Source: Gammaproteobacteria bacterium (GTDB taxonomy: Bacteria; Pseudomonadota; Gammaproteobacteria; Magnimaribacterales; D2472). From it: DNA of 64,000 nt. The notes under the pieces were generated by a model. The model saw only the letters and a list, made by a program, of their open reading frames with translations, did not search any database and had not been told where the DNA came from. The stretch is from the NCBI GenBank assembly GCA_045564015.1, contig JBJLIB010000014.1:20466-84465 (forward strand). Direction: 5' to 3'. This document shows, in pieces, positions 1-63,014 of the stretch. Both the position numbers and the translations under genes were made by a program. How positions within the stretch are numbered: position 1 is the first letter of the stretch; each line of letters begins with the position of its first letter.

Positions 1-1031
1 TCTCCATGAGAGGCATAGGCACAAGACAAGATATCTGATTGCTGAGTTCGTGTTGGCATGCCGGTGGATGGGCCTCCCCTTTGAATATTAAAAATAACTA
101 CTGGGATTTCTGCAAAATAGGCTAGGCCAACAAATTCTGTCATGAGTGAAATTCCTGGTCCACTTGTTGCTGTAAATGCTCTTGCTCCATTCCAATTTGC
201 ACCAATTGCCATGCCAATAGATGACAACTCATCTTCAGCTTGCACAAAGGCAAATTTATTTTTACCTGTTTTATCATCAACCCTAAATTGGTCACAGTAT
301 TTTTTATATGATTCAGCCAAAGATGTTGACGGGGTGATAGGGTACCAAGCGCAAACCGTTGCTCCACCATAGACGCAACCCAGCCCTCCGGCATTGTTTC
401 CGTTCGTAAGGATCATCCCATCTGTAAGATTTTTTTGATTTACTTTTATATTACAAACATCAGTTAGATGTTTTTTTGCATAGTTAAAGCCCATTTCCAG
501 CGCCTGCACATTGGGCGCAATAAGTTTTTCTTTGCCTTTGAATTGCTCCTCAATGAGCTCAATAAAAATATCTTTGTTCATGCTCATCAAATATGACAAA
601 GCTCCTACATACACAAGGTTTTTAAATAAAAGCCTTGTTTTGGGGTTTTGAAATTCATCAACACATAATGAAGTTAGCGGTACCTCAATAATATTTATGT
701 CATCTCTATGAAATTCTCTTTTCCACGATGAATCATACAAAAGATATCCACCTGGATTAATTTCAGCAACGTCTTGAGAATAGGATTGTGGGTTCATTGC
801 AACCATGAAATCAATACCAGCTTTTCTTCCTAGATATCCTTTTTCACTAGCCCTTATTTCAAACCATGTTGGAAGGCCCTGAATGTTAGATGGAAAAATA
901 TTTTTTGGGCTGACGGGTATGCCTGATCTAAAAATGCCTTTTGCAAACATTTGATTAGCGCTTGCTGAGCCTGAGCCATTAACATTAGCAAATTTAATAA
1001 CAAATTCATTAATTGAGGTAATTTTACTCAT
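1..1031 (-). CDS. 2-oxoacid:acceptor (ferredoxin) oxidoreductase alpha subunit (fused gamma-alpha type). Only the N-terminal ~343 codons are present; the 3' end lies beyond the window.
   Basis: This ORF is absent from the ORF track because it runs off the window edge. My own translation from ATG 1031-1029 reads MSKITSINEFVIKFANVNGSGSASANQMFAKGIFRSGIPVSPKNIFPSNIQGLPTWFEIRASEKGY...GGATVCAWYPITPSTSLAE...TSGPGISLMTEFVGLAYFAEIPVVIFNIQRGGPSTGMPTRTQQSD. That is typical of KorA/PorA-type enzymes. The start overlaps the upstream stop (ATGA at 1028-1031). Confidence 0.85.
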   Translation of the reverse strand, partial: MSKITSINEFVIKFANVNGSGSASANQMFAKGIFRSGIPVSPKNIFPSNIQGLPTWFEIRASEKGYLGRKAGIDFMVAMNPQSYSQDVAEINPGGYLLYDSSWKREFHRDDINIIEVPLTSLCVDEFQNPKTRLLFKNLVYVGALSYLMSMNKDIFIELIEEQFKGKEKLIAPNVQALEMGFNYAKKHLTDVCNIKVNQKNLTDGMILTNGNNAGGLGCVYGGATVCAWYPITPSTSLAESYKKYCDQFRVDDKTGKNKFAFVQAEDELSSIGMAIGANWNGARAFTATSGPGISLMTEFVGLAYFAEIPVVIFNIQRGGPSTGMPTRTQQSDILSCAYASHG

Positions 1032-3031
1032 GAGTAGACCTTAGCTTCTTCATAAAGAAATGTTTGCATGTCCCAAGCACCAGTCGGGCATCTTTCTGCA
1101 CACAAACCACAATGCAGGCAAACATCTTCATCTTTAAACATCGTTCTTTTAGTTGGTAAGATTTTAGAAACCAATAAATCTTGTTCAATGTTTAAGGCAG
1201 GAATTCTGGTATTTTGTCTAACCTCATCTTCAGGCGCATTAAACATGAAATTAATACAATCTGTGGGGCAAATATCTACGCAAGCATCACACTCAATACA
1301 TAAGCTTTCAGAAAAGACGGTTTGCACATCGCAGTTTAAGCATCTTTGAGCTTCTTCCATGGCCAGATCTGCATCAAAGCCTTTTTCAACTTCAATTTTT
1401 AAGCTTTTCAGTGCTGTATCTTGATCTGCTTTAGGTACTAGAAATCTTTTGGCTTGAGAAATATCATTGTCATAGGACCATTCATGCAGCCCCATTTTTT
1501 GACTTACTAGATTCGTTCCAGGAGACGGCCTTTCATTGATATCTTCATTTTGACAGAATTTATGAATGGAAATTGCAGCTTGGTGTCCGTGAGCAGCAGC
1601 CCAGATTATATTTTCAGGTCCCCATGCAGCATCTCCACCAAAAAAGATTTTTGGATGAGTTGATTGAAATGTTACAGGATCAACAACGGGCATATCCCAT
1701 TCTCCAAACTCTAAACCTATGTCTCGCTCTATCCATTCAAATGAATTATCTTGGCCAATGGCCACTAATACATCATCACACTCAAGGATGACTGGCTTTT
1801 CATCTGTTGGTACCAGCGATCGATTTCCTTTTTCATCAAAAACAGCTTCGACTTTCTGAAATTCCATTCCAGTTAGCCTGCCAGATTCATGAATAAACTT
1901 TTTAGGAACGTGATTTTCAAGAATTGGAATATTTTCTTCCATCGCATCCTCTATCTCCCATTCAGAAGCTTTCATTTGAGAGAAAGGGCTTCTAACAACA
2001 ACCTTTACATCTTCAGCACCCAATCTTAAGGAAGATCGACAGCAATCCATTGCTGTGTTTCCACCCCCCAGTACAATTACCCTTTTTCCTATAGAGTCAA
2101 TATGCTCAAAGGCAATACTTGTTAAAAAATCTATGCCTATATGAATGTTAGCCTCAGCATCTTTACGACCTTCAATATTTAAATCTTTACCTTTTGGAGC
2201 CCCAGTTCCAATAAAAACAGCATCAAAATCTTCTTTTAAGAAATCTTTCAGGCTAGTGATCTCAGAATTAAATTTTGTTTTTAATCCCATATTAAGAATT
2301 TGATCAACCTCAGCATCCAAGACCTCTTCTGGAAGTCTGAATGATGGGATATTGGTTCTCATTAATCCACCAGCTTGAGGGTCTTTTTCAAAAAGCGTGC
2401 ACTCATATCCCATTACGATAAGATCTCTAGCAACAGTTAAGGATGCAGGCCCACCACCTATAAGAGCAATTTTTTTCCCATTGCATTTTTTAGGAGCTTT
2501 CGGCAATAGATCTGAAACATCATCTTTAAAATCAGCCGCAACTCTTTTTAGCCTGCATATAGCTACAGGTTTTTCATGAGTTCTAGTTCTTCGGCAAGCT
2601 GGTTCACAAGGCCTATCGCATGTCCTGCCTAGAATTCCAGGAAATACATTAGACTCCCAATTAATCATATAGGCTTCTGTGTATTCATTTTGAGATATTT
2701 TTCTAATGTATTCTGGAACAGGTGTATGAGCTGGGCATGCATATTGGCAATCTACAACTTTATGATAATACTGAGGGTCAGAGGTATCAGTGACTGGCAT
2801 AAAAGTTTTTACAGGATTTTTTCCATTTGACTGTCTGAGGTTTTCTTTGGCAGCAAATATTTGAGATTTAAAATCTTCTACCACCGCTTCTCTTAATTTT
2901 TGAGCCTCAGATAATTCGTGGGTATGCAAGGAGGTTCTCAGATCAAAACCTAGCTCCTTACGAAGATCTTTTGGAACAGCAACTTTTACCCAATAGGTAT
3001 TATGTCTTTTAAATAAGTATTTTGTATCCAT
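1028..3031 (-). CDS. GltD/NfnB-like NAD(P)H-dependent FAD oxidoreductase fused to a C-terminal 2x[4Fe-4S] ferredoxin domain, with an atypical ~75-aa N-terminal extension
   Basis: 667-aa ORF. It has an N-terminal Fe-S region (CQYACPAHTP...CDRPCEPAC) and two dinucleotide folds (GGGPASL, GGGNTAMD). The C-terminus carries CIECDACVDICP and CLHCGLCAERCP. A strong SD (GGAGGGGAG, forward 3041-3049) ends 9 nt upstream of ATG 3031. The gene is translationally coupled to the oxidoreductase alpha subunit downstream. Confidence 0.85.
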   Translation of the reverse strand: MDTKYLFKRHNTYWVKVAVPKDLRKELGFDLRTSLHTHELSEAQKLREAVVEDFKSQIFAAKENLRQSNGKNPVKTFMPVTDTSDPQYYHKVVDCQYACPAHTPVPEYIRKISQNEYTEAYMINWESNVFPGILGRTCDRPCEPACRRTRTHEKPVAICRLKRVAADFKDDVSDLLPKAPKKCNGKKIALIGGGPASLTVARDLIVMGYECTLFEKDPQAGGLMRTNIPSFRLPEEVLDAEVDQILNMGLKTKFNSEITSLKDFLKEDFDAVFIGTGAPKGKDLNIEGRKDAEANIHIGIDFLTSIAFEHIDSIGKRVIVLGGGNTAMDCCRSSLRLGAEDVKVVVRSPFSQMKASEWEIEDAMEENIPILENHVPKKFIHESGRLTGMEFQKVEAVFDEKGNRSLVPTDEKPVILECDDVLVAIGQDNSFEWIERDIGLEFGEWDMPVVDPVTFQSTHPKIFFGGDAAWGPENIIWAAAHGHQAAISIHKFCQNEDINERPSPGTNLVSQKMGLHEWSYDNDISQAKRFLVPKADQDTALKSLKIEVEKGFDADLAMEEAQRCLNCDVQTVFSESLCIECDACVDICPTDCINFMFNAPEDEVRQNTRIPALNIEQDLLVSKILPTKRTMFKDEDVCLHCGLCAERCPTGAWDMQTFLYEEAKVYS

Positions 3032-3591: not shown

Positions 3592-4752
3592 TTATAATTT
3601 TTTTAATCCAGCACTAATAGCATCTATAAGGTCGTCAGTATTTTCCAGACCAGCAGATATTCTTATTAAACCCTCTGAAATCCCAATTTTTTCTTTTTCT
3701 TCAGGAGTTAACTGAGCATGTGACATTGTGTAGGGATGAGCAGTCAAACTTTCAAACCCACCAAGCGATTCGGCAAATGACAAGATTTCAAGCTCATGTA
3801 CAAATTTTTTTGCTGACTCAACTCCACCTTTAATTTCAAAACTTAGCATGCCTCCAAAACCTTTTTGTTGTTTTTTTGCAATTGCATGAGAAGGGTGATT
3901 TAAAAGACCTGGATAATAGACAGTCTTTATCTTGTCACTGTTGGATAGCAACTCAACTATTGCTGCTGCATTTTTTTCATGCTTTTCCATTCTAATAGAT
4001 AGTGTTCTTAAACCTCGAAGGGTGAGGTAACTATCAAAAGGAGCACCAGTAATGCCTAGATTGTTTGCCCAGAATTTTAAATCTGTAAGGATTTCTTCAT
4101 TGTTTGTTATTACCGCACCGCCAACAATGTCAGAGTGACCATTGATATATTTTGTTGAGGAGTGCATCACTATGTCTGCCCCCAGAAGCAATGGGTTTTG
4201 CAGGACAGGAGATAAAAAAGTATTGTCAACAACGACTAATGAGTGATGAAGTTTAGCTTTTTGTGCAATCTGCTCAATATCTACTACTTGTAAAAGAGGG
4301 TTAGATGGGGTTTCAATCCAAACTAAATCTGGATTAATTTCCTCAAAAGTTTTTTCAAGTGCTATGAGATCACTCTGATCAGTGAAATACACATCAAGAA
4401 CTCCCTTCTCTTTAAGGGATGTGAATAATCTTATAGTGCCTCCATAACAATCATGCGGGAGAATCACTTTGCTATTAAGCCTGAGGGTATTTGCAATTAA
4501 AGTAACTGCTGCCATTCCTGAGCTTGTTACTTCTCCACCTATGCCACTTTCAAGGTCACTAAGTGCGTTCGTTAAATGATCTCTTGTAGGATTGCCATCT
4601 CTTGTATATTCATATGCTTGCTCTTTTCCCAGCTCATCAAAGACAAAATTTGTTGATAAATACAATGGAGGGACTACTGATCCATGCTGCTCATCGCTTT
4701 TAATACCAGCCCTCGATGTAATTGTTTCTTTGTTTAATTTCTTTTTCATCAT
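3592..4752 (-). CDS. Cys/Met-metabolism PLP-dependent enzyme (cystathionine gamma-synthase / beta-lyase / O-succinylhomoserine sulfhydrylase family)
   Basis: The PLP-lysine motif SSTKYINGHSD is present and the protein looks like the trans-sulfuration family across its full length. The ORF track starts at a TTG (4767); I prefer the ATGATG at 4752. Confidence 0.85.
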   Translation of the reverse strand: MMKKKLNKETITSRAGIKSDEQHGSVVPPLYLSTNFVFDELGKEQAYEYTRDGNPTRDHLTNALSDLESGIGGEVTSSGMAAVTLIANTLRLNSKVILPHDCYGGTIRLFTSLKEKGVLDVYFTDQSDLIALEKTFEEINPDLVWIETPSNPLLQVVDIEQIAQKAKLHHSLVVVDNTFLSPVLQNPLLLGADIVMHSSTKYINGHSDIVGGAVITNNEEILTDLKFWANNLGITGAPFDSYLTLRGLRTLSIRMEKHEKNAAAIVELLSNSDKIKTVYYPGLLNHPSHAIAKKQQKGFGGMLSFEIKGGVESAKKFVHELEILSFAESLGGFESLTAHPYTMSHAQLTPEEKEKIGISEGLIRISAGLENTDDLIDAISAGLKKL

Positions 4753-4784
4753 AATCTCACTATGCAATTTTAAAATGGGAAGGC

Positions 4785-4815
4785 AAAAAAAAACCCATCA
4801 GCCTAGCTAGATAGG
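4785..4815 (-). terminator. intrinsic terminator inside the 5' leader of the PLP-enzyme gene (attenuator)
   Basis: Read on the minus strand: stem CCUAUC/GAUGGG (6 bp including one G-U), a 10-nt loop, then U9 (the forward A-run at 4785-4793). It lies ~35 nt upstream of the start codon, and no gene ends here on either strand. Confidence 0.6.
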
Positions 4816-4825
4816 TTTCTTAGGT

Positions 4826-4880
4826 TCTATTTAGCTGAATTTATAAAGCACCCGCAAGCTGAATTCAAATCAGTGCTTAA
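4826..4880 (-). promoter_or_regulatory. structured leader element (candidate riboswitch aptamer, class unassigned)
   Basis: On the minus strand there is a 6-bp stem AAGCAC/GUGCUU (4878-4873 / 4851-4846) enclosing a 21-nt loop, UGAUUUGAAUUCAGCUUGCGG. The 3' tail UAUAAAUUCAGCUAAAUAG repeats the 9-mer AAUUCAGCU found in the loop. The attenuator terminator follows directly. Confidence 0.4.
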
Positions 4881-4962
4881 ATTATTTTAGACATAAAATT
4901 TTTTCACGCAAGCTTATTATAATTTTAGCTGCTTATATTATTAATTATGTTAAAGTCAAAAA

Positions 4963-46545: not shown

Positions 46546-46986
46546 ATGAAAAAGTTATTACTTTTACCTCTGTTATTTACCATGTTTGCATCAGCAGAAA
46601 TCTATGAAGATTTCACTCCTTCGCAAGAGCCAATGGAGTTAACTGTTGTTGCAGTTCAGCCAAACTATGTAGATACATATCTTACAAATCTCAATAGAAC
46701 TTGGGTTAGAGCTATGAATGTTCAAAAGAAATTAGGCTATGTCGAGGATTTTAATGTTTGGACATCTCTAAGCGTTGCCGATACTCCAAATGTTTGGATT
46801 ACAGTTCAATACAAAGACTTAGCTTCAATGCAGCAGACTGAAGAAAAAAGTAAAGCTGTAGAAGAAGAATTAGAGAAAATGTATGGAGATAATGAGGTTG
46901 AGTTAGAGGAAATATCAAAAGGCTATGAAGAGATTCGCGAGATGATTGATCATGCAATTATCTACAGAGTTGATTTTAAAGATTAA
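46546..46986 (+). CDS. hypothetical secreted protein, one copy of the same module type
   Basis: It has a signal peptide, and its strand-helix-strand pattern parallels the modules of the upstream ORF. Confidence 0.55.
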   Translation: MKKLLLLPLLFTMFASAEIYEDFTPSQEPMELTVVAVQPNYVDTYLTNLNRTWVRAMNVQKKLGYVEDFNVWTSLSVADTPNVWITVQYKDLASMQQTEEKSKAVEEELEKMYGDNEVELEEISKGYEEIREMIDHAIIYRVDFKD

Positions 46987-51980: not shown

Positions 51981-54006
51981 TTCTATTCTAAATATAATTC
52001 CAAGAACTCTTTTCAGTTTTTTAATATTTTTTGCATTTAATCTGCAGTCTGAAGATCAATCTGATGCAGATAGTTTTTTTGAAAGAGAGGCGCCAGTCTA
52101 CCCAACTCCAGATAATTTAATGGGATGGATAGATTCAAGACAGATCTTAACCTTGAATGGCGAATGGAGCTACATCGTTGATCCCATGAATAATGGTTTG
52201 CCTGAGTCATCTTTTTTTGGCGGGTTTCCAAAAAACAAAACTCAAAAAACAGGTATGGAGTTAATTGAATACAACTTTGAGACTGCAGCAAAAATTCAAA
52301 TTCCTGGAGCCTGGAATGCTGCAGATGAAAAACTTTTTTTCTATAGAGGGCCAGTCTGGCTCTATAAAAAATTTCAATATTCGCCCAATAAAGAATCTTT
52401 AACTCACCTTTATATAGAGGGCAGTAACTTCACGACAAAAGTATTCATCAATGGGTCTATTGTTGGAGAGTTTGAAGGCGGCTATGTCCCATTCAACTTT
52501 GAAATATCTGATCACTTAAAAGATGGTGACAATATATTATTGGTGCAAACCGACAACACTCTCAATAAGTCTTCTGTTCCCACTCAAAAAACTGATTGGT
52601 GGCCATGGGGAGGCATTGTTGGTGATGTATATATTGTCGAGACTCCGAAGCAATTTATTAGAAATGCCTATCTGCAACTAAATCCAGAAAATTTTTCTCA
52701 AGCTTATTTTAGCCTTGAAATGAATGATAAATTTGCAGGAAAAGAGATTAGCCTTGAAATACCGGAGCTTCAATATTCGAATAAATTCATAACTAACTCT
52801 TTAGGAGCAATCACAGAGAATATAAAAATCACCCCTCAGCTTTGGTCACCAGCAAACCCAAAACTCTATGAGGTCATCATATCCTCTAAAGATGAATCAA
52901 TTAATGATGAGATAGGTTTTCGCTCCATCAAAACACAAGGCCAGAAAATATATTTGAATAATAGCGAGATCAGATTTAAGGGAATTGCTATGCATTCAGA
53001 GCCTATTGGGATAGATGGACCGGCTTTTTCACAGGAGCATTTTAAAAAATTACTATCAACAGCTAAGGAGCTTAATATTAATTTTGTAAGAGCTGCACAT
53101 TATCCTTACACTCGCCATCTAGCCAAGATCGCGGACCAATTTGGGCTCATGCTTTGGGAGGAGGTTCCTGTTTACTGGAACATTGATTGGTCTAACGCTG
53201 AAACATTAACAATAGCTAAGAACCAAATCAGCAGACTGGTTCAAAGAGATCAAAATAGGGCATCTGTTGTAGTTTGGTCAGTGGCAAATGAAACACCTCT
53301 ATCTTCATCAAGAATGCAATTCTTAAATGCATTGCTTTCTGAAATAGAGGTGACAGACACATCGCGATTAACAACAGCGGCTCTTCTATCAGGGAGTGAA
53401 GAACAATTTAGGTCATTAGTTTTAGTTTTAGCCTTACAGGGAGCAAAATCTAAATGGGTTGATCCAAAAGAAAAAGCTATTTTTAAATCAATCCTAGATC
53501 GAGCAAATGTATCGATAGATCATGAATTAAATTTCTCCCTTTCGATTGAAGACCCCTTGGGTGATAGTGTAGATTTAATTTCTTATAATGAGTACTTTGG
53601 GTGGTACTACGTGACATTTTTTACAGACCAAATGATGATTTCTGAAGGTACTCTTAGACAGTTAATGTTTGAGGTTATGCCAAAGATAAAAATTAGCTCT
53701 ATATTTGATAAACCTATTCATATATCTGAATTTGGTGCAGGTGCAAAGTATGGCAATCATACGAATAAAATTTGGTCTGAAGGGTATCAAGCTAAGCTTT
53801 ACAAGCATCAATTAGAAATGCTCTCTAACAATCCACAAATCCAAGGAATCAGCCCTTGGGTTTTCAAAGATTTTAGAGCCATGCTGAGACCCCTGCCTGG
53901 AATACAAGATTTTTACAACAGAAAAGGTTTAATTGATGAGAACGGAAATAAAAAAGAAGCCTTTGAAGTTTTAGCTGATTTTTATGAAAATAAATGGCAT
54001 AAATAA
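51973..54006 (+). CDS. glycoside hydrolase family 2 protein (beta-glucuronidase/beta-galactosidase-like), secreted
   Basis: An N-terminal sugar-binding domain is followed by a TIM barrel with the acid/base motif WSVANE and a nucleophile region ISEFG. TTG start overlapping the upstream gene. Confidence 0.75.
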   Translation: MINSILNIIPRTLFSFLIFFAFNLQSEDQSDADSFFEREAPVYPTPDNLMGWIDSRQILTLNGEWSYIVDPMNNGLPESSFFGGFPKNKTQKTGMELIEYNFETAAKIQIPGAWNAADEKLFFYRGPVWLYKKFQYSPNKESLTHLYIEGSNFTTKVFINGSIVGEFEGGYVPFNFEISDHLKDGDNILLVQTDNTLNKSSVPTQKTDWWPWGGIVGDVYIVETPKQFIRNAYLQLNPENFSQAYFSLEMNDKFAGKEISLEIPELQYSNKFITNSLGAITENIKITPQLWSPANPKLYEVIISSKDESINDEIGFRSIKTQGQKIYLNNSEIRFKGIAMHSEPIGIDGPAFSQEHFKKLLSTAKELNINFVRAAHYPYTRHLAKIADQFGLMLWEEVPVYWNIDWSNAETLTIAKNQISRLVQRDQNRASVVVWSVANETPLSSSRMQFLNALLSEIEVTDTSRLTTAALLSGSEEQFRSLVLVLALQGAKSKWVDPKEKAIFKSILDRANVSIDHELNFSLSIEDPLGDSVDLISYNEYFGWYYVTFFTDQMMISEGTLRQLMFEVMPKIKISSIFDKPIHISEFGAGAKYGNHTNKIWSEGYQAKLYKHQLEMLSNNPQIQGISPWVFKDFRAMLRPLPGIQDFYNRKGLIDENGNKKEAFEVLADFYENKWHK

Positions 54007-54044
54007 ATTTCTTTAAATTAATTATATTTTTTTTAAAAAAAGTG

Positions 54045-54072
54045 TTGACACTATTTCCTAAAGGCGTATATT
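54045..54072 (+). promoter_or_regulatory. sigma70-type promoter of the candidate ncRNA
   Basis: TTGACA (54045-54050), a 16-nt spacer, then TATATT (54067-54072). Confidence 0.6.
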
Positions 54073-54078
54073 TAATAG

Positions 54079-54297
54079 ACCAACTCGGACCGACTTACAA
54101 TCAACTGCAGACGGGAGTAAGAGAGAAAGAGAAGGAAGAGACGAAGGGCGAAAGCGTTACTAAGAGTCGACGATAAAAAAGAGCTTAGTGACCCACCAAG
54201 AAGGAAAGAGAAAGCCTTCAAGGAGCTAAAGAGATTCTCACTTTAGACCCCTTCCAATCTCGAACTGAAAAGACAGAGCCTAGCTCTGTTTTTTTTT
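54079..54297 (+). ncRNA. candidate ~220-nt non-coding RNA (purine-rich, GGA-motif-bearing; family unknown)
   Basis: The promoter lies upstream, and the unit ends in an intrinsic terminator (ACAGAGC-CUA-GCUCUGU at 54273-54289, then U-run). There is no ATG and no ORF. Several hairpins are possible, and the base composition differs sharply from the flanking DNA. Confidence 0.55.
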
Positions 54298-54377
54298 GCC
54301 TTTAATTTATAGATTCTCTTACATTTCCTTTTAATTAAACGATAATACCTATTACATGATTTTAGGGGATTCCGTTA

Positions 54378-55943
54378 ATGCTATTTAGTAATTTAGATAT
54401 ATTTATTGTTATTTTTTATTGCATTGGGATTATATTTCTAGCTCAATATGTTTCTCGATCTCAATTGGGCCAAGAGAAAACTGCTGAAGATTATTTTCTA
54501 GCTGGAAGATCATTGCCTTGGTGGGCTATTGGAGCATCTCTTATTGCTGCAAACATTTCTGCTGAACAAATAATTGGAATGTCCGGACAAGGCTTTGTAG
54601 TTGGTATGGCAATTGCAACCTATGAATTGACTGCAGCCATTGCTTTAATAGTAATGGCAAAATATTTCTTACCTCTTTTTTTAGAAAAGCAAATCTATAC
54701 TATGCCTCAATTTCTTGAACAGAGGTTTGATAAAAGGGTAAGTCTTGTACTCTCATTTTTTTGGCTGGCTGTTTATGTATTTATAAATCTTACAAGCGTT
54801 TTGTGGCTTGGATCGTTGGCAATAAATTCACTCACTGGGCTAGATCTATTTACCGGCTTATTGCTGTTAGCTCTCCTATCTTTAGCATACTCACTTTGGG
54901 GTGGGCTAAAAGCAGTCGCCATGACAGACATTATTCAGGTTGTTTTATTAATCTTTGGGGGACTTTCTGTATCTTATATTGCTTTAAATCAAATATCGGA
55001 CGGTACAGGAATATTCAATGGTTTGAACAAAGTTTATCAATTACTTCCTGAAAAATTTGACATGATTTTATCTACTGATAATCCTGCATATAAAGATCTT
55101 CCAGGAGTCTGGGTTTTGATTGGCGGCCTATGGATTGCTCACTTTGCTTATTGGGGCTTCAATCAATATATTACTCAAAGAGCACTTGGAGCAAAATCAC
55201 TGCCTGAAGCACAGAAGGGAGTAATGTTTGCAGCATACCTTAAGCTTTTAATGCCATTTGTTGTAGTTCTTCCTGGAATATGCGCCGCAGTTATATATCC
55301 TGAGCTAGATAAATCTGATCAAGCATACCCAATGATGATGTCCTTATTGCCAAACGGTATTTTGGGTCTTACTTTTGCTGCTTTAATTGCTGCCATAGTT
55401 TCCTCATTAGCCTCTATGACAAATAGTATTAGTACGATTTTTACCATGGATATTTATAGAAATTTTACTTCTTTAAAACCATCAGAAACAAAACTAGTGT
55501 CAGTCGGCAGGAATGTTGCTGTGATAGCATTAGTGATTGCTGTTTTGTGCGCACAACCATTACTTGGAAGCATGGAGTCAGCATTTCAGTACATTCAAAA
55601 CTTTACTGGATTTTTTACTCCTGGCATTCTGGTAATATTTTTAGTTGCTCTATTTTGGAATAAAGCTACTACTTTGAGCGTTTTAGTGGCTGCAATAATG
55701 TCATTGATCTTATCTTTGCTTATTTTCTTAATCTTTCCAGAGTATCCATTTATTCATAGGATGGGGGTTGTATTTTTGACTTCTGGATTAGGATGTTTTT
55801 TAACTGCATGGATTCAAGGCTACACCAATCAAGAAAAAGCGATTGAACTATCAGGAATTAATTTTAAAACAGAGCTTTCATTTAATATAAATACCCTGAT
55901 TATCTTTGGAATCTTAATAGTTACTTACCTTTTGCTATGGTAA
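54378..55943 (+). CDS. sodium:solute symporter (SSS/SGLT family, sugar-type)
   Basis: 521-aa polytopic protein. The N-terminal region (DYFLAGRSLPWWAIGASLIAANISAEQIIGMSG) is typical of SGLT-type transporters. Confidence 0.85.
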   Translation: MLFSNLDIFIVIFYCIGIIFLAQYVSRSQLGQEKTAEDYFLAGRSLPWWAIGASLIAANISAEQIIGMSGQGFVVGMAIATYELTAAIALIVMAKYFLPLFLEKQIYTMPQFLEQRFDKRVSLVLSFFWLAVYVFINLTSVLWLGSLAINSLTGLDLFTGLLLLALLSLAYSLWGGLKAVAMTDIIQVVLLIFGGLSVSYIALNQISDGTGIFNGLNKVYQLLPEKFDMILSTDNPAYKDLPGVWVLIGGLWIAHFAYWGFNQYITQRALGAKSLPEAQKGVMFAAYLKLLMPFVVVLPGICAAVIYPELDKSDQAYPMMMSLLPNGILGLTFAALIAAIVSSLASMTNSISTIFTMDIYRNFTSLKPSETKLVSVGRNVAVIALVIAVLCAQPLLGSMESAFQYIQNFTGFFTPGILVIFLVALFWNKATTLSVLVAAIMSLILSLLIFLIFPEYPFIHRMGVVFLTSGLGCFLTAWIQGYTNQEKAIELSGINFKTELSFNINTLIIFGILIVTYLLLW

Positions 55944-56887
55944 TAAAATCCAAAGTTTCTACTTTAGAAAAGAAAGTTTTACTTGTGGATATTGGCGGGA
56001 CTAATATCCGAACAGCAACAGCTGAAATTGGCTCTTTTGAGTTACAAAACGCTCATAAGCGGAATCTAGATTGTCTTGATTCATTTGATGAGATAATTGA
56101 GAATCTGCTCAATGAAGATATGGACATCAAACATATAGTATTTTCTATTGCTGGCCCCAAGCTCCATCAATCCATTTCAATGACTAATAGAAAGTTTGAG
56201 ATAGACGAATCAGATATTCTTAATAAGTTCGAAATTGACTCATGCCATATCCTTAATGATTGGGAATCAATTGGTCATGGGCTATCACTTTTTGATAGGA
56301 ATGAAATGATTTTTATTAATGAGGGCAATTCATTTAATAATACTGCTTTAGTTTTAGGTCCAGGCACTGGCTTAGGAGTAGCTCAGGTGATAAATAATAA
56401 TATTGTTCTTCCTACCGAAATTGGTAATAGCTTACTAAGCATGCCTAAATTATTTAAAGAATTAAATCTCTCAAATCCAGAAGATTTTATTGTTATTGAA
56501 GATTTGCTCTCTGGTGGTGGTTTAAAGAAAATTTATAAATGTATCTCATCTGATGAACAATCTCCTGAAGAGATTGTTGCAAGTTATGCCAAAAATGAAT
56601 TATCTCAAAAAAGTGTACAATTTTTTTTGATATCTCTTTCACAAATATTATCTGAGCTTGCATTAGCGTATATGCCTGGAAGTGGAATCTACATTGCAGG
56701 GGGCTTGATGCGTTCTTTGCAACAATTCCTTGATATTGATAGATTCATGAAGGAGTTCTTAGTTAACAGAAAATCAATACATGCAGATGTGCTTAAACAA
56801 ATACCACTTGCAATTATTAATCAAGAAATGACTTGTTTGCATGGAAGTCTAAATTTTATTAATAAATTTAGCTTAAATCTTAAATAG
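55937..56887 (+). CDS. glk: glucokinase
   Basis: VDIGGTNIR ATP-binding N-terminus, 316 aa. It overlaps the symporter stop by 7 nt. Confidence 0.8.
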   Translation: MVIKSKVSTLEKKVLLVDIGGTNIRTATAEIGSFELQNAHKRNLDCLDSFDEIIENLLNEDMDIKHIVFSIAGPKLHQSISMTNRKFEIDESDILNKFEIDSCHILNDWESIGHGLSLFDRNEMIFINEGNSFNNTALVLGPGTGLGVAQVINNNIVLPTEIGNSLLSMPKLFKELNLSNPEDFIVIEDLLSGGGLKKIYKCISSDEQSPEEIVASYAKNELSQKSVQFFLISLSQILSELALAYMPGSGIYIAGGLMRSLQQFLDIDRFMKEFLVNRKSIHADVLKQIPLAIINQEMTCLHGSLNFINKFSLNLK

Positions 56888-56939
56888 AAAAAAACTAAGA
56901 TTGAATTTTTAGACATAGACTTTTAATAGGAAAAAAATT

Positions 56940-59372
56940 ATGCGAAGCCTTTATATAATAATTTTGATTTTTACCAGTTCCAATCTTTTGGCGCAAGCTG
57001 ACTGGACAAGAAAAAATACATGTGAGTATACTGATTTTGACAATACTGACCTTATTGAAAAGCTAATTAAGGGAATGAGCATTGAAGAAAAGGTAGGGCA
57101 AGTAATTCAGGGAGACTTAGACTTTATTTCGCCTGCAGATGTTCGGAAATATAAGATTGGCTCTGTACTAAACGGAGGAAATACTGCTCCAAATAAAGAT
57201 AAATACAGCTCAGCGGAGGATTGGAAGACATTAAGCAAAGAGTTTTATGAAGCCTCTCCTTCATATCAGGGTGTTAAGGTCCCAGTATTATGGGGCACTG
57301 ATGCGGTTCATGGACACAATAACGTAATTGGCGCAACCCTTTTTCCGCATAATATAGGTTTGGGCGCAACTAGAAATGAAGCTTTGGTTAGAAACATTGG
57401 TGAAGCGATTGCTCTGGAAGTTCTTTCAACTGGGGTAGCTTGGACATTTGCCCCAACAATTGCTGTCCCTCAAGATGATCGCTGGGGTAGAACATATGAG
57501 GGATTTTCTGAGGATCCAATTTTGGTATCTAAACTTGGTAAAGCATTAGTTCTTGGACTTCAGGGTCAGGGCGATACATTTCTAGACAACAACCATGTAA
57601 TTGCAACCGCAAAACATTTTATGGGCGATGGGGGAACATTTGAAGGAATTGATCAAGGGAATACAAGAATCTCTGAAGCAGGCCTAAGAGAACTGCATGG
57701 GTTTCCATATTTTGATGCTCTTGATGCCTGTGCTCAAACTGTTATGGCAAGTTTTAATTCGTGGAATGGTGAAAAGATTCACGGTTACCAAAAGCTTTTA
57801 ACTGATATTTTAAAAATAGATATGCAATTTGATGGTTTTGTAGTTGGTGATTGGAATGGTCACGGACAGGTTAAGGGCTGCTCTAATTCTAAATGTGCTC
57901 AATCTTTTAATGCTGGGGTAGATATGTTTATGGTTCCAGAAAATTGGAAAGATCTTCTCAGAAATACAATTAGGCAAGTTAAATCAGGCGCAATATCTGA
58001 ATCAAGGCTTGATGATGCCGTTAGAAGTATCTTAAATGTAAAATCAAGGCTGGGACTTTTCAATAATAGAAAACCTCACGAATTTAAGGAAAATTATCTC
58101 GGCCATCCAGATCATATTGCGTTGGCTCGTCAAGCTGTAAGAGAATCGATAGTCTTACTAAAAAATAATAATAGATTATTACCCCTTGATCCTTCAAAAC
58201 ACATAGTTGTATTTGGCGATGCAGCAAATAAAATATCTTCTCAAACAGGTGGCTGGACAATTACTTGGCAGGGAAGAGAGAACTCAAACAATGACTTCGT
58301 AAATGTTAGTTCTATCTTCGAAGCTTTAAAAGCAGTCATTAACTCTTCTGGAGGAACAATTGAGTTCTCTTCAGATGGTAAATTTAATAAAAAACCAGAT
58401 GTTGCCATTGGGGTGTTTGGTGAAGAGCCATACGCGGAAATGCTTGGAGATATAGATGATGTTTCATTTGCGGCAACTGATCCTAAGTTTCTGTCTTCAC
58501 TAAAGCTCATAAGTGCTAAGGGCATTCCTACAGTTAGTATTTTTTTATCTGGAAGACCTTTAGTGGTGAATGAGCATATAAATGCTTCTAATGCTTTTGT
58601 TGCTGCCTGGCTTCCTGGCTCAGCAGTAGAAGGAATAGCAGATGTGCTTTTTCAAAAAAATAATACAATTAATTATGACTTTAAAGGCAAACTTTCATAT
58701 TCTTGGCCTAAATCTAAAGATCAAGCAGTCTTAAATTTTACTGACAGCATATATGATCCTTTATTTCCTTATGGTTATGGCCTCACTTATCAATCAGATA
58801 CAAATCTTACAAGTATTCAAACTCAGAATACTTTTTCCAAACTTGATTCTGTGAATGTATTCCTGGGCGCTGCTTCAATTCCAGGCAAAGAGTTTGTGGT
58901 AACTAAATCTGGACCTGAATTTGTATTAAAGGATGATTTTATAAGCGCTAATAACAAAATTAAAATCACAAGATTTGATTATCAGAGGCAAGATGATGCT
59001 AAAAATATCATCTTTGTTGCAGATGAATCTTTGCAAGCGTTTGGTATTTCAACTCAATCAGCAATTAATTTATCTACTATGAAATCTCCTTTTTATGAAA
59101 TAGTTATGAGAGTCAACACACTTACAAACCCTTCGCTTTATTTTAGCGTCGGCTGTGGTAATAATTGTAGAGGCTCAGTCATATTACCATCTAAGTCGAT
59201 GACAAGCTGGTCAAAGATAAATATCCCACTTTCTTGTCTTGAAGCCTCAGGTTTGGATCTATCTAAAATTCAGGTCAGGAGCTTGTTTTTGAGTCAAGAT
59301 AGCATCAGCTTTGATCTTAATTCAATCACCATAAGAGATGGCAAAAGAACTGGTGAGCAGATTAGCTGTTAA
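56940..59372 (+). CDS. periplasmic GH3 beta-glucosidase / exo-beta-glucanase
   Basis: Signal peptide and GH3 motifs are present (WGTDAVHGHNN, KHFMGDGGT, nucleophile region FVVGDWNG). An extra C-terminal domain is present. Confidence 0.85.
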   Translation: MRSLYIIILIFTSSNLLAQADWTRKNTCEYTDFDNTDLIEKLIKGMSIEEKVGQVIQGDLDFISPADVRKYKIGSVLNGGNTAPNKDKYSSAEDWKTLSKEFYEASPSYQGVKVPVLWGTDAVHGHNNVIGATLFPHNIGLGATRNEALVRNIGEAIALEVLSTGVAWTFAPTIAVPQDDRWGRTYEGFSEDPILVSKLGKALVLGLQGQGDTFLDNNHVIATAKHFMGDGGTFEGIDQGNTRISEAGLRELHGFPYFDALDACAQTVMASFNSWNGEKIHGYQKLLTDILKIDMQFDGFVVGDWNGHGQVKGCSNSKCAQSFNAGVDMFMVPENWKDLLRNTIRQVKSGAISESRLDDAVRSILNVKSRLGLFNNRKPHEFKENYLGHPDHIALARQAVRESIVLLKNNNRLLPLDPSKHIVVFGDAANKISSQTGGWTITWQGRENSNNDFVNVSSIFEALKAVINSSGGTIEFSSDGKFNKKPDVAIGVFGEEPYAEMLGDIDDVSFAATDPKFLSSLKLISAKGIPTVSIFLSGRPLVVNEHINASNAFVAAWLPGSAVEGIADVLFQKNNTINYDFKGKLSYSWPKSKDQAVLNFTDSIYDPLFPYGYGLTYQSDTNLTSIQTQNTFSKLDSVNVFLGAASIPGKEFVVTKSGPEFVLKDDFISANNKIKITRFDYQRQDDAKNIIFVADESLQAFGISTQSAINLSTMKSPFYEIVMRVNTLTNPSLYFSVGCGNNCRGSVILPSKSMTSWSKINIPLSCLEASGLDLSKIQVRSLFLSQDSISFDLNSITIRDGKRTGEQISC

Positions 59373-59377
59373 CTTAG

Positions 59378-61549
59378 TCAATCATTCGGATTATAAAAAT
59401 ACTGAAATTTAGCGTAAATCTGAGATGTCTCTAATCTTATATTATCGCTAAATGGGTTGGGCTCTTCATAGAATTGTGTACCACCAATGTAAAAGATAGT
59501 AAAAGGGTTGGGTTTCCACTGAAATAAAGCCTCAAGGAAATAATCGTCACTAAAATCATTTTTTTCAATAATTGTTCTTGTAGATAATGCATTATCAAAT
59601 TGGTAGTCAATTTCAAATCTATTAATTTCACCTGCATAGAATTCTTCGTGAGTAATTTTATTTTTTAACTCAGAGTATCTATGCCCAAGAGAAATCTTGA
59701 AATTGTCTGAAAATCTAAATACGGTGAACAAATTATACTGGGTAGAGTCTCCAATTTCCGGCTGGTCAATTCTGTAAGCAATGGCTTCTCCCTTTTCATA
59801 TTTAAAGCTAGTAAAGAAACTTTCTGCAGGATGATATTCGCCACTTATTTCATATTCTTTTTGTTCACCAAATTGAATGCCCGCAAACTTTTCGCTTGAT
59901 TTAAGTTCAAACTCAATTCCACCAGAAAAGTTAAAATTTGTTTCAAGATTTATTCTAAATCCATAGAATTCTCGAGTTTTCTGATTTCGAAAATTTAATC
60001 TGTTTCTATTGTTCAAATTGAAATTAATCTTTCTTATAACACCCTGAGATCTGTATGTTCTTCCGTACCAATAGTTCCGATTTTTATAATCATTTCGTCC
60101 AACAAAACCAACATGTGCTCTGTAAGTTGGAGATACATCTTTAAATCTTATGCCCCAATTTGATCCATTAACAACTCTTCTTAATCGAAAATTTTTAGCT
60201 GAACCAGAGAAAGATTCTCCATCCATTGCATAAGTTCTTCCTGCAAAAGTATCATCAGTCTCAATATAATTTATGTAACCTTCCTGCGTATCACTTCTTG
60301 CATAATTTAAATCCAAAATATAATCATCAAGGAAGTTTATTAACCCATCAAATTCAACAAGTGATCCAGAACCACCTGATTGATAATCTCTATTGGTTGC
60401 TATTAATCCTAGGTGTGAATTATTTCCGAGGTTTCTTTTAAATCTGCCAACGGTCACCTTACTTTTTCCGGCATTTCCTCGATATGATCTTTCCTGTCCT
60501 GCTGCTAAATAGGGAGAATCACTATCAGTAGCATGCATAATATATGTTGAGCTATCTTTGCCCTGATTGACGTATTTAAGTGCACCAAGAGGACTTGTTA
60601 CAGATCTTGTATAGACCGTATTTAAATCTGATTTTAGAAGTTCTGAGCCTTCTAAAAAAAATGTTCTTTTTTCTGGATATGATATAGCAAAGGTTTCATT
60701 TGCCATGATCATTGGGACGTCTGATTCAACCTGAGAAAAATCAGGGTTAATGGTATATTCAATTGATGATGATTTGCTTAAATCATATAAGCCAGTAATA
60801 CCAATTTCATAATCGGGATTTTGCAATTTAAATTTATTTACTGGTCTATTTCCAATTTGATTTACAAAGATATATGGATAAACATAATTTCTATAAATTT
60901 CTTCAGGTGAACCCAAGATAACCTCTTCATCAACTTGACATGCGTAACATGTTTCTCTAGGAAGATTTTTAAATGATCCAAAGACTGTTTGAACGCCTGC
61001 TTCATATGATTTTCTTATGAATCCTATATTCCATTTCTGTACCTCTGTATCAGGCAACTGAAGCTCAGAAAACGGAATGATCATTTCAGCGGAATATCCA
61101 TCGTCTTGAAAAGCAGTGGCTGATTGAAACAAAATTCCCCAAGAGTCATCATTACCATTGCTAGTAAATTTTTCATCCAATTGGACGCCTAAAGCATTTA
61201 CACCCACTAAAATGCCATATCTTCCATCTCTAAATGGATCAGCCATCATGGCGAGATAGTCCTCATTGAAAGTTTCATCTCTATTTTTTAATGTCGCTCT
61301 TATTTTCTTAGGATCACCATATGCTTTTATGCCAATATAAATATTTTTTTTATCATATTTTAAATAAGCAGTAGTTTTTAGTGCAGCAGGACTATTTCTG
61401 GAGGGCATCAATTCATATTCCAGATCATAGGAGTTTGCTTGATCCCATTCGCTTGGAGATAGGACACCATCAAGCAAGAAGCTTTCCCCTGAAATATTAT
61501 AAGAAGCAGTTAGACAAAAAATAATAGATGCCAATTTTTTATAAGGCAT
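59378..61549 (-). CDS. CBM9-like / DUF5916-type outer-membrane protein
   Basis: The N-terminal region (DGVLSPSEWDQA...YLKYDKKNIYIGIKAY) resembles CBM9-like domains. The C-terminal region is long, beta-rich and ends in an aromatic-rich sequence. I prefer ATG 61549 because a signal peptide follows it; the ORF track starts at 61588. Confidence 0.5.
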   Translation of the reverse strand: MPYKKLASIIFCLTASYNISGESFLLDGVLSPSEWDQANSYDLEYELMPSRNSPAALKTTAYLKYDKKNIYIGIKAYGDPKKIRATLKNRDETFNEDYLAMMADPFRDGRYGILVGVNALGVQLDEKFTSNGNDDSWGILFQSATAFQDDGYSAEMIIPFSELQLPDTEVQKWNIGFIRKSYEAGVQTVFGSFKNLPRETCYACQVDEEVILGSPEEIYRNYVYPYIFVNQIGNRPVNKFKLQNPDYEIGITGLYDLSKSSSIEYTINPDFSQVESDVPMIMANETFAISYPEKRTFFLEGSELLKSDLNTVYTRSVTSPLGALKYVNQGKDSSTYIMHATDSDSPYLAAGQERSYRGNAGKSKVTVGRFKRNLGNNSHLGLIATNRDYQSGGSGSLVEFDGLINFLDDYILDLNYARSDTQEGYINYIETDDTFAGRTYAMDGESFSGSAKNFRLRRVVNGSNWGIRFKDVSPTYRAHVGFVGRNDYKNRNYWYGRTYRSQGVIRKINFNLNNRNRLNFRNQKTREFYGFRINLETNFNFSGGIEFELKSSEKFAGIQFGEQKEYEISGEYHPAESFFTSFKYEKGEAIAYRIDQPEIGDSTQYNLFTVFRFSDNFKISLGHRYSELKNKITHEEFYAGEINRFEIDYQFDNALSTRTIIEKNDFSDDYFLEALFQWKPNPFTIFYIGGTQFYEEPNPFSDNIRLETSQIYAKFQYFYNPND

Positions 61550-61704
61550 TTCAGTTTTTTTCTTTATTAAAAATAATTTTTTAAACATGGTTGTTTTAAG
61601 GGCACTGTATTTTAGGCTAATAAGAAGGCTCAGAATATAGATATTTAATAAGATTTCCCTTTTTTTATGTTCAATTGCATTGATTTGGGTATAATCATCG
61701 CATT

Positions 61705-61910: not shown

Positions 61911-63014
61911 CTACTCCCCCACTTTTCTAATGATAGACGATGAAATATCGTCTCTAAATATATCCTCACCAAAACCAGTAAATCTATTTTTAATATGCTC
62001 AGGTATCGAAACTGAGTCTAAGCCTATAAAATTCTTTTTAATCTTGCGTCCAAAAACTAAGAAATTAATGTTATGACTGTTAAATAAATCGAGTTCATCA
62101 AGCATGTCTTTTCTATTCAAATAAAACTTCTCATCTAACATTCTTGTTAATGTATCTGCCCCAATAATAAAAACTGAATTAGGAAATAATTGAGCCTTAT
62201 CGGTAAATTTACCAGCCTTAGTTAAGACCCATTCATAGGTTTGACTGAATTGTAATAATGTTCTCTTGATCTCATGATACGAAAGAGGGGGCTTATCAGC
62301 ATTTTGAATACAAATTTCATATGCAGGACTCAATCCGGTTCTTTTTTCTGCAAGTGCACTCATTTCGCTATGGCCAGAATGAAATGGATTAAATGAGCCA
62401 GGAAAGATTAATTCCGGTGTTCGATTTGATGATGAAATAAAATCAATTTTATTATTTACTAATTTGATCCAAGACTTTTCTGCTTGAGTTTTCTCAATGA
62501 TAAGGTTTGGTGACTTTTCTGGAAATTTGCTGACATCGCAAGCTTCAGACAAAGCATAAATTATATGTTGAGTGACAATTTCTTCTTCCTCGTCTCTTGA
62601 AAGCTCGCCTTTTATAAAAGAATAAGAAAAGCTTAAAGAATACTTATGTGTTTGGATGGCTATAAAAAATTTATGATCACCTTTTTTTGAATAATTAGTA
62701 GCTAATGATGCTGTTACAGCAATACCTAATAATTTTTTTGGATGAGTCTTTGGATCTATTTTTTTTGCTGCACTATAGGCTTTTGCTGCCATGCTAAGGG
62801 TGGTATCTAGACTGCAATAATGATCCGGTTGCCTTAAAAGATAATGATCTAAAGATTCTTTTGCATATGGAACATATGCCTCTAAAACAGAGTTGCTAGC
62901 ACCAGGCACTTTTAAAATTTCTGAAATTGCATTCGTTCCGCCTCCGCTAGAAACAATGACAAAACGATAAGACGAATTATGAATTTTTTTAATAGTTTCT
63001 AAATATTGAGACAT
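61911..63014 (-). CDS. fusion protein: CinA-C/PncC-like domain plus NadD/NMNAT-like nucleotidyltransferase domain
   Basis: The N-terminal half has VSSGGGT...PGASNSVLEAYVPYAKESL, compared with TAESCTGG...GSSAWFERGFVTYSNEAK in PncC. The C-terminal half has GSFNPFHSGH (the HxGH motif) and ISSSIIR (ISST-x-IR-like). Confidence 0.6.
   Translation of the reverse strand: MSQYLETIKKIHNSSYRFVIVSSGGGTNAISEILKVPGASNSVLEAYVPYAKESLDHYLLRQPDHYCSLDTTLSMAAKAYSAAKKIDPKTHPKKLLGIAVTASLATNYSKKGDHKFFIAIQTHKYSLSFSYSFIKGELSRDEEEEIVTQHIIYALSEACDVSKFPEKSPNLIIEKTQAEKSWIKLVNNKIDFISSSNRTPELIFPGSFNPFHSGHSEMSALAEKRTGLSPAYEICIQNADKPPLSYHEIKRTLLQFSQTYEWVLTKAGKFTDKAQLFPNSVFIIGADTLTRMLDEKFYLNRKDMLDELDLFNSHNINFLVFGRKIKKNFIGLDSVSIPEHIKNRFTGFGEDIFRDDISSSIIRKVGE

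Follow-up and report, generated by a model that had tools for sequence, protein, structure and literature searches.

The 64,000-nt stretch of contig JBJLIB010000014.1 analyzed here (the window) very probably carries, at positions 54045–54297 of its forward strand, a complete and independently transcribed gene for the noncoding RNA IMES-1 of a SAR86-clade gammaproteobacterium. The most likely working form of this RNA is a trans-acting, structured molecule that pairs with itself through the loop of one of its hairpins, P3. Within that loop lies a six-nucleotide sequence whose self-complementarity covaries among relatives, apparently a new observation, and we lean toward the view that IMES-1 is a kissing-loop homodimer joined through this hexamer.

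When the whole window was scanned with Rfam 15, the unit matched IMES-1 (RF02034) with a score of 202.5 bits, compared to a gathering score of 81 (E = 4e-46). The match spans positions 1–191 of the 191-position model, with near-perfect posterior probabilities in the alignment, and divergent IMES-1 copies score 184–202 bits against the same model. A set of junction and loop sequences that are invariant or nearly so across 59 copies (GGGNGAAAGC, CCACCAAG, AAGAGAAAG, CAAGGAGC, UCUCAC, and GACCCCU) is present in full in the window copy. In a permissive scan of 53900–54500 (E ≤ 1), the only other Rfam family to appear was AgrB, as a sub-threshold match on the terminator hairpin. The original prediction, made from the letters of the window, had put the unit forward as a candidate novel RNA that could not be placed in any family by eye. 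The Rfam search it called for placed the unit in IMES-1, the outcome that it had itself described as "real but not novel." The claim of novelty is not supported: the family was already known, and the window element adds no new one. That the unit is a discrete gene for a structured noncoding RNA, bounded by a promoter and a terminator of its own, was borne out.

The IMES-1 motif was reportedly described from marine environmental sequences by Weinberg et al. in Nature in 2009, and Shi et al. are said to have recovered it, also in Nature in that year, among the putative small RNAs (psRNAs) of marine metatranscriptomes. The 2009 reports are said to have found it exceptionally abundant in ocean metatranscriptomes. 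To our knowledge, IMES-1 has been an orphan ever since, with neither a cultured host nor an assigned function. In the open-access papers searched, we found no mention of IMES-1, no report that it self-associates, and no paper connecting SAR86 with IMES-1 or with small RNAs. The analysis described here provides three handles on this old question: a SAR86 host, a self-contained gene with a strong promoter, and dimer-type covariation in one loop. SAR86 is one of the most abundant groups of marine heterotrophs, and its genomes often carry the gene more than once.

The P3-loop hexamer, which is GUCGAC in the window, lies directly 3′ of an invariant GA and is drawn as plain loop in the Rfam structure line for RF02034. 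Four hexamers occur in the genome set (GUCGAC, GUCGAU, GUCGGC, and GUGCAU), all of which are self-complementary when G-U pairs are allowed. In a metagenome scan, we collected copies with a base other than C at hexamer position 3 and left positions 4–6 unconstrained. All 75 such copies carried a compensating base at position 4 (GUUGAC in 28, GUGCAU in 18, GUUAAC in 11, GUAUAC in 11, and GUGCGC in seven). The hexamer could be read in 139 of the 148 nhmmer matches and was self-complementary in every one of the 139. The hexamer was masked to build a neighbor-joining tree from 100 distinct full-length copies, on which we counted eight hexamer states and at least 16 changes among them, with GUGCAU originating at least three times. 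Across 56 distinct P3 regions, 100% were self-paired, and the adjacent pair at the center was CG in 30, GC in 13, UG in seven, AU in three, and UA in three. The best mutual-information partner of position 3 was its neighbor, position 4 (1.19 bits, with the next best at 0.78). Self-duplex energies of the observed hexamers ranged from −5.4 to −10.3 kcal/mol, compared to −1.5 and −2.2 kcal/mol for GUGGAC and GUAGAC, which were never seen. Where a genome or contig held two copies, both had the same hexamer (13 of 13).

Adjacent bases are unable to pair within one molecule. A palindrome that selection maintains while its identity is free to change is the hallmark of a symmetric duplex formed by two molecules. 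When we looked for an intramolecular partner, no other variable column could pair with hexamer position 3 or 4 in more than 78% of sequences. Two specific pairings were also rejected: pairing with the 3′ tail CUCGAA is broken in the GUGCAU variants, and a local pair between position 3 and the variable base 54181 is inconsistent across variants. We propose that two IMES-1 molecules would pair via their exposed P3-loop hexamers to form a kissing-loop homodimer and that the dimer, rather than the monomer, would be the working form. Such a dimer would probably serve as a scaffold or binding partner rather than as an antisense regulator. If this is true, IMES-1 would be a naturally self-associating RNA. 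RNAcofold gave −127.7 kcal/mol for two full molecules versus 2 × −55.9 kcal/mol for the separate strands. As hairpin-rich RNAs in general favor strand-swapped duplexes, this value was not used as support for a dimer.

Several points weigh against a dimer. The support for it is covariation in sequence, and the metagenome copies had been selected by their base at position 3. For the converse case, an uncompensated change at position 4 while position 3 remains C, the 62 genome-derived copies are the sole sample, and none of them shows such a change. The folding model places U54167 and C54168 of the hexamer in a weak 2-bp local pairing. A further complication is the second palindrome, CUGCAG, in the P1 loop. 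As CUGCAG never varies, it yields no covariation evidence, and its invariance is odd for a mere second kissing loop. CUGCAG may form a second contact, or it may serve as a site of another kind. It is a speculative proposal, which we consider unlikely, that in SAR86 cells the P3 and P1 loops together join IMES-1 into closed dimers or into longer assemblies made of RNA only.

One alternative is that the monomer is the functional form and the palindrome is kept for another reason, such as the binding of a symmetric protein dimer to the RNA or to the DNA. Palindromes are the classic sites of dimeric proteins, and an invariant palindrome such as CUGCAG is what a protein site would be expected to look like. 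However, a protein site should fix its bases, whereas the center of the hexamer accepts CG, GC, UA, AU, and UG and, through all of its 16 or more changes, has kept only complementarity. In addition, the variants with G-U wobbles (GUCGAU, GUCGGC, and GUUGAC) fit RNA pairing and not a DNA palindrome. We therefore regard a protein site as improbable and continue to favor self-pairing of IMES-1 through the P3 loop.

The boundaries of the gene are conserved together with the RNA. Promoter and terminator are kept with the unit in ~60 other copies, while the sequence and genes outside are not. The promoter (54045–54072) agrees with the consensus at 11 of 12 positions and is the top promoter-like site within 53000–55500. 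It is the near-consensus TTGACA/16 nt/TATATT promoter of the original prediction, which was confirmed. The A/T tract that precedes it may act as an UP element. At the other end, the canonical terminator proposed at 54273–54289, with a T-run ending at 54297, was confirmed; the stem is invariant in 49 distinct sequences, and the U tail is 8–9 nt long in all copies. When 61 copies were aligned with their flanks, conservation fell from 0.92 to 0.58 just past the T-run. The predicted transcription start, A54079, is 4–5 nt 5′ of the start of the Rfam model. In the folds of many variants, CC at 54080–81 pairs with GG at 54134–35 (CG with CG in some), and this tentative terminal pairing would be consistent with a start at 54079. 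We infer a transcript of ~219 nt (about 54079–54297), whose synthesis would be driven by a strong sigma-70 promoter preceded by an UP-like A/T tract. A conserved near-consensus promoter and an UP-like tract are consistent with the high abundance reported for IMES-1.

The body of the RNA (54084–54273) is 40% A and 15% T, with a GC content of 45% versus 37% for the window. At 65%, its purine content falls in the top 0.4% of 190-nt windows. These counts bear out the earlier description of a T-poor body that is rich in G and A and richer in GC than its surroundings. As had been claimed, there is no ATG within 54073–54297, and the number of GGA motifs is exactly five. The accompanying claim that the unit contains no open reading frame (ORF) did not hold, as two mechanical ORFs of 44 and 49 amino acids overlap it. 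Neither is conserved. Homologues carry frame-breaking indels, and their longest sense ORFs range from 0 to 52 amino acids. The 371-nt gap around IMES-1 (54007–54377) is, as first reported, the largest true intergenic gap of the window. An apparent 633-nt gap at 395–1027, which a crude gene call gave as the one larger stretch free of ORFs, is coding, as it lies in a minus-strand ORF that runs past the window end. This open frame (140–1033, minus strand) continues past the left end of the window, for which reason the ORF list lacks it, and by eye resembles a 2-oxoacid:ferredoxin oxidoreductase subunit. A purine-rich stretch near 46832 is also coding.

The predicted fold, which covariation supports, consists of a 5′ hairpin, P1, followed by a junction that is closed by helix P2 and contains hairpins P3, P4, and P5 (Table 1). 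Structure was analyzed in a main alignment of 59 copies. RNAalifold, run on these copies without the Rfam reference, recovered P3, P4, P5, the P2 core, and the terminator. In the Rfam-type structure, 94.8% of cells were paired, compared to 25–52% when the partners were slid, and in 14 pairs both partners change. Covariation scored 0.291 versus 0.116 for shuffled alignments, and none of 500 shuffles reached 0.291. The minimum-free-energy (MFE) fold of the window RNA is the family structure (z = −2.4).

Since covariation, RNAalifold, and Rfam agree, the hairpins originally drawn at 54157–54191, 54200–54219, and 54226–54246 are correct as P3, P4, and P5, as is the long-range GAAGGG/CCCUUC pairing, which is P2. 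The AGGG/CCCU core of P2 is invariant, and the outer P2 pairs covary or mismatch. Two other hairpins of the original prediction were not recovered. The GAAA tetraloop hairpin at 54148–54155 is instead an invariant junction without covariation, and the 5′ hairpin drawn as ACUC/GAGU plus CCG/CGG is replaced by conserved CUC/GAG and CUUAC/GUAAG pairing. Because indels cause MAFFT to misalign P1, we folded 38 distinct P1 domains singly. Both P1 helices covary among them (for example, UUGAUU/AAUCAA, CAGC/GCUG, UGGC/GCCA, and CUAAC/GUUAG). A pairing between GGGUG in the P2–P3 junction (J2/3) and CCACC in the P3–P4 junction (J3/4) was rejected, as U-to-C and U-to-A changes there are uncompensated.

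Table 1. Features of the IMES-1 gene, in window coordinates
Feature	Position	Strand	Evidence
A/T tract (T-run, then A-run), UP-element-like	54027–54044	+	Consensus TTTTTt.....aaagTG; mean majority fraction 0.82 in homologous copies
−35 box TTGACA, inside invariant GTGTTGACA	54045–54050	+	Majority fraction 0.96 across 56 copies
−10 box TATATT, 16-nt spacer	54067–54072	+	GTA..T core conserved at fixed distance
Predicted transcription start A, 7 nt past −10 box	54079	+	Promoter geometry
IMES-1 RNA body	54084–54273	+	Full-length match to Rfam RF02034
P1 hairpin: outer CUC 54084–86/GAG 54129–31, inner CUUAC 54094–98/GUAAG 54117–21	54084–54131	+	Rfam alignment, MFE fold, covariation
P1-loop palindrome CUGCAG	54105–54110	+	Invariant in 100/100 distinct full-length copies, even with wholly different P1 stems
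P2 helix closing multi-helix junction, GAAGGG 54143–48/CCCUUC 54249–54	54143–54254	+	Rfam structure, RNAalifold, covariation count
P3 hairpin GUUACUAAG 54156–64/CUUAGUGAC 54184–92, 19-nt loop	54156–54192	+	Five pairs change both sides; 96.8–97.5% of cells paired
P3-loop self-complementary hexamer GUCGAC, candidate kissing-loop dimerization site	54166–54171	+	Eight variants, all self-complementary
P3–P4 junction CCACCAA	54193–54199	+	Invariant across 59-copy alignment
P4 hairpin GAAGG/CCUUC, invariant loop AAAGAGAAAG	54200–54219	+	4/5 pairs change both sides; 100% paired
P4–P5 junction AAGGAG	54220–54225	+	GGA in 55/59 copies; GGC in L014, L024, L048, L052
P5 hairpin CUAAAG/CUUUAG, loop AGAUUCUCA	54226–54246	+	Two pairs change both sides; 98% paired
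Intrinsic terminator ACAGAGC-CUA-GCUCUGU (54273–54289), then U-run	54273–54297	+	Conserved, fraction 0.92

A small RNA (sRNA) with its own promoter, an intrinsic terminator, and a tail of 8–9 U could also be a classical Hfq-dependent regulator that base-pairs through a short seed. Single-stranded stretches rich in A and G occur in IMES-1, among them an (A-R-N)6 run (54124–54141) in the window copy. In most copies, however, the run has n = 4, near the shuffle expectation of 3.35. Furthermore, conservation is spread over junctions and loops, with 110 of ~214 columns invariant among sequences down to 68% identity. Such a spread is typical of RNAs with a tertiary fold and not of seed-type sRNAs, and we consider this reading quite improbable.

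The original prediction had suggested a sponge of the CsrB/RsmY/RsmZ type that sequesters CsrA/RsmA. IMES-1 shares several traits with these RNAs: it is an sRNA rich in purines that stands alone, ends in a terminator of its own, and contains GGA motifs, and it is reportedly very abundant, as would be expected of a sponge. The count of five GGA motifs given for the window copy was accurate. The neighbors of IMES-1 are often genes of central carbon metabolism (pyruvate kinase, pyruvate dehydrogenase [PDH] E1, oxaloacetate decarboxylase, 2-keto-3-deoxy-6-phosphogluconate [KDPG] aldolase, and glucokinase). We gave this little weight, since the neighborhood looks like variation on one ancestral region rather than independent association. 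In contrast to the known sponges, IMES-1 lacks a family match, as none of the Csr/Rsm covariance models matched 53900–54500 at E ≤ 1, and it has too few conserved GGA motifs. Copies contain 3–7 GGA, of which only two are near-universal, one at the 3′ boundary of the P1 loop (in 57 of 59 copies) and one in the P4/P5 junction AAGGAG (in 55 of 59). Short hairpin loops display neither of them. Copies L014, L024, L048, and L052 have no GGA at either the P1/P2 or the P4/P5 junction. A search of 55 upstream regions that tolerated up to three mismatches found no conserved GacA/UvrY box (TGTAAG-N6-CTTACA). We consider a sponge very unlikely. Searches with tblastn for csrA, hfq, and proQ in ~460 kb of SAR86 DNA found none of them; as this is a fraction of a genome, the result is uninformative.

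The genes next to IMES-1 vary. Upstream, we found a divergent indoleamine-dioxygenase-like gene in 23 copies and a GH2 gene in seven, including the window, as well as patatin, DUF1330, isochorismatase, and other genes. Downstream, the gene encodes pyruvate kinase in 15 copies, oxaloacetate decarboxylase beta (convergent) in 11, PDH E1 in six, and a symporter in four, including the window; glucokinase, KDPG aldolase (convergent), patatin, and others also occur. A downstream gene was called for 56 copies and is convergent in 21 of them. Even in the window's own clade, whose RNAs are 97–98% identical, the downstream gene may encode the symporter, pyruvate kinase, glucokinase, patatin, or KDPG aldolase. 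Spacers to same-strand genes contain promoter-like elements of their own, which in the window is CTTACA-17-GATAAT at 54318–54346.

This variability bears on the other function that had been suggested, a cis-acting attenuator or riboswitch leader whose terminator would gate read-through into the SGLT-glk-GH3 (symporter-glucokinase-GH3) genes from 54378. The terminator does lie on the same strand and 80 nt before the symporter start codon, a symporter follows IMES-1 in three other genomes as well, and some read-through is possible, but a gene that differs among close relatives and is often convergent, the occurrence of tandem IMES-1 copies in four genomes, the invariant terminator stem, and the separate promoter-like site between the terminator and the symporter gene make a leader the least credible of these functions, with very little chance of being correct. 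The only candidate for an antiterminator pairing, P3 AGAGC with terminator GCUCU, lacks covariation; it was sought by eye, and no systematic search was made. We infer that IMES-1 acts in trans rather than on the adjacent symporter-glucokinase-GH3 genes.

Several observations concern the flanks themselves. In nine near-identical copies (L004, L019, L025, L031, L032, L035, L036, L038, and L063), the flanks are shuffled relative to window 54007–54377, with GH2, isochorismatase, or patatin genes upstream and symporter, pyruvate kinase, glucokinase, KDPG aldolase, or patatin genes downstream. In L063, an isochorismatase gene precedes IMES-1 and the symporter that follows is 100% identical to that of the window. 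The shuffling reflects either recombination between copies or chimeric assembly at the repeat. In the window, the symporter-glucokinase-GH3-CBM9 block (54378–61588) sits between IMES-1 and a cytidylyltransferase-like gene (61911–63014, minus strand). In L027 and L054, the cytidylyltransferase-like gene is directly convergent to IMES-1, and the sugar-use block looks like an insertion beside the IMES-1 gene. In L007, L020, L021, L023, L046, and L050, the T-run is directly followed by a conserved promoter-like element, CTTGCAAAA...TAATAT, that precedes pyruvate kinase. The pyruvate kinase start codon in these six copies is ~7–12 nt past the −10 box, which suggests that this mRNA may be leaderless or nearly so. 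In L005, a tRNA gene (311–383) lies ~65 nt past the terminator of IMES-1, and a serine recombinase gene (322–1881) comes after it. This segment resembles an element integrated at the tRNA and probably has nothing to do with IMES-1.

To place IMES-1 in its hosts, we used an exact pattern of invariant junction and loop bases, which identified 55 loci in species-representative bacterial and archaeal genomes. Almost all are in single-cell or metagenome-assembled genomes labeled as SAR86 cluster (Gammaproteobacteria) or in known SAR86 single cells. Copies labeled Pseudohongiella and Neomarinimicrobiota score 189–192 bits, and L017, the copy labeled Neomarinimicrobiota, barely differs from SAR86 copies such as L042. 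We read both labels as labeling or binning errors. The window RNA is 97–98% identical to copies of a group that includes SAR86E.

With nhmmer, we found 62 copies in genome-derived DNA, including the tandem pairs. Several genomes contain two separated copies, among them a complete 1.30-Mb chromosome, and the window holds a single copy. Contigs often start or stop inside IMES-1, and 31 of the 148 nhmmer matches are cut by a sequence end, which is the behavior of a multi-copy repeat that breaks assemblies. IMES-1 is found at contig ends in L059–L062, L064, and many of L065–L138, and L005 and L028 are the two ends of one 279-kb contig. Only three matches came from the viral collection (L056–L058), all at contig ends, and one of these is a 5′-truncated IMES-1. 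We rejected a viral origin, as these are most likely misfiled fragments of SAR86 genomes.

Elsewhere in the window, positions 4810–4886 (minus strand) give a borderline match to the SAM_alpha (SAM-II) riboswitch, at 36.6 bits versus a gathering score of 36. The match is directly upstream of a gene for a pyridoxal-5′-phosphate (PLP) enzyme of Cys/Met metabolism (3592–4767, minus strand), a placement that would make sense for a genuine SAM riboswitch in a genome of SAR86.

Compared to the IMES-1 family as previously defined, the window element differs in nothing: it shares the helices of the family and the invariant sequences of its junctions and loops, and it comes from marine DNA. Our analysis adds to the family a SAR86 host, a conserved promoter, and a multi-copy organization. 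It also adds 4–5 extra 5′ nucleotides that may be paired (54080–81/54134–35) and the covarying, self-complementary hexamer in the P3 loop.

A precedent for such a loop is the dimerization initiation site (DIS) of HIV-1, a palindrome with the variants GCGCGC and GUGCAC that is displayed in a 9-nt loop of an RNA genome packaged as a dimer. Like the DIS, the IMES-1 element is a six-nucleotide self-complementary sequence in a hairpin loop, is flanked by purines, and varies in ways that remain palindromic (eight variants in IMES-1). In IMES-1, these variants are 100% self-paired, use five central pair types, and have no partner in cis. Unlike the DIS, the IMES-1 hexamer lies in a 19-nt loop of a bacterial small RNA, and its dimer is deduced from sequence.

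A second comparison is with GOLLD, ROOL, and OLE, large bacterial RNAs that are described as forming RNA-only homo-oligomers (PMC12286853), with self-association built into their architecture. Covariation in the P3 loop would tie IMES-1 to the orphan bacterial RNAs presented there as RNA-only homo-oligomers. Like them, IMES-1 is an orphan, ornate noncoding RNA of bacteria that emerged from comparative genomics. GOLLD, ROOL, and OLE measure at least ~600 nt, and their multimeric structures have been solved, whereas in IMES-1, which is ~200 nt long, covariation points to no more than a dimer contact.

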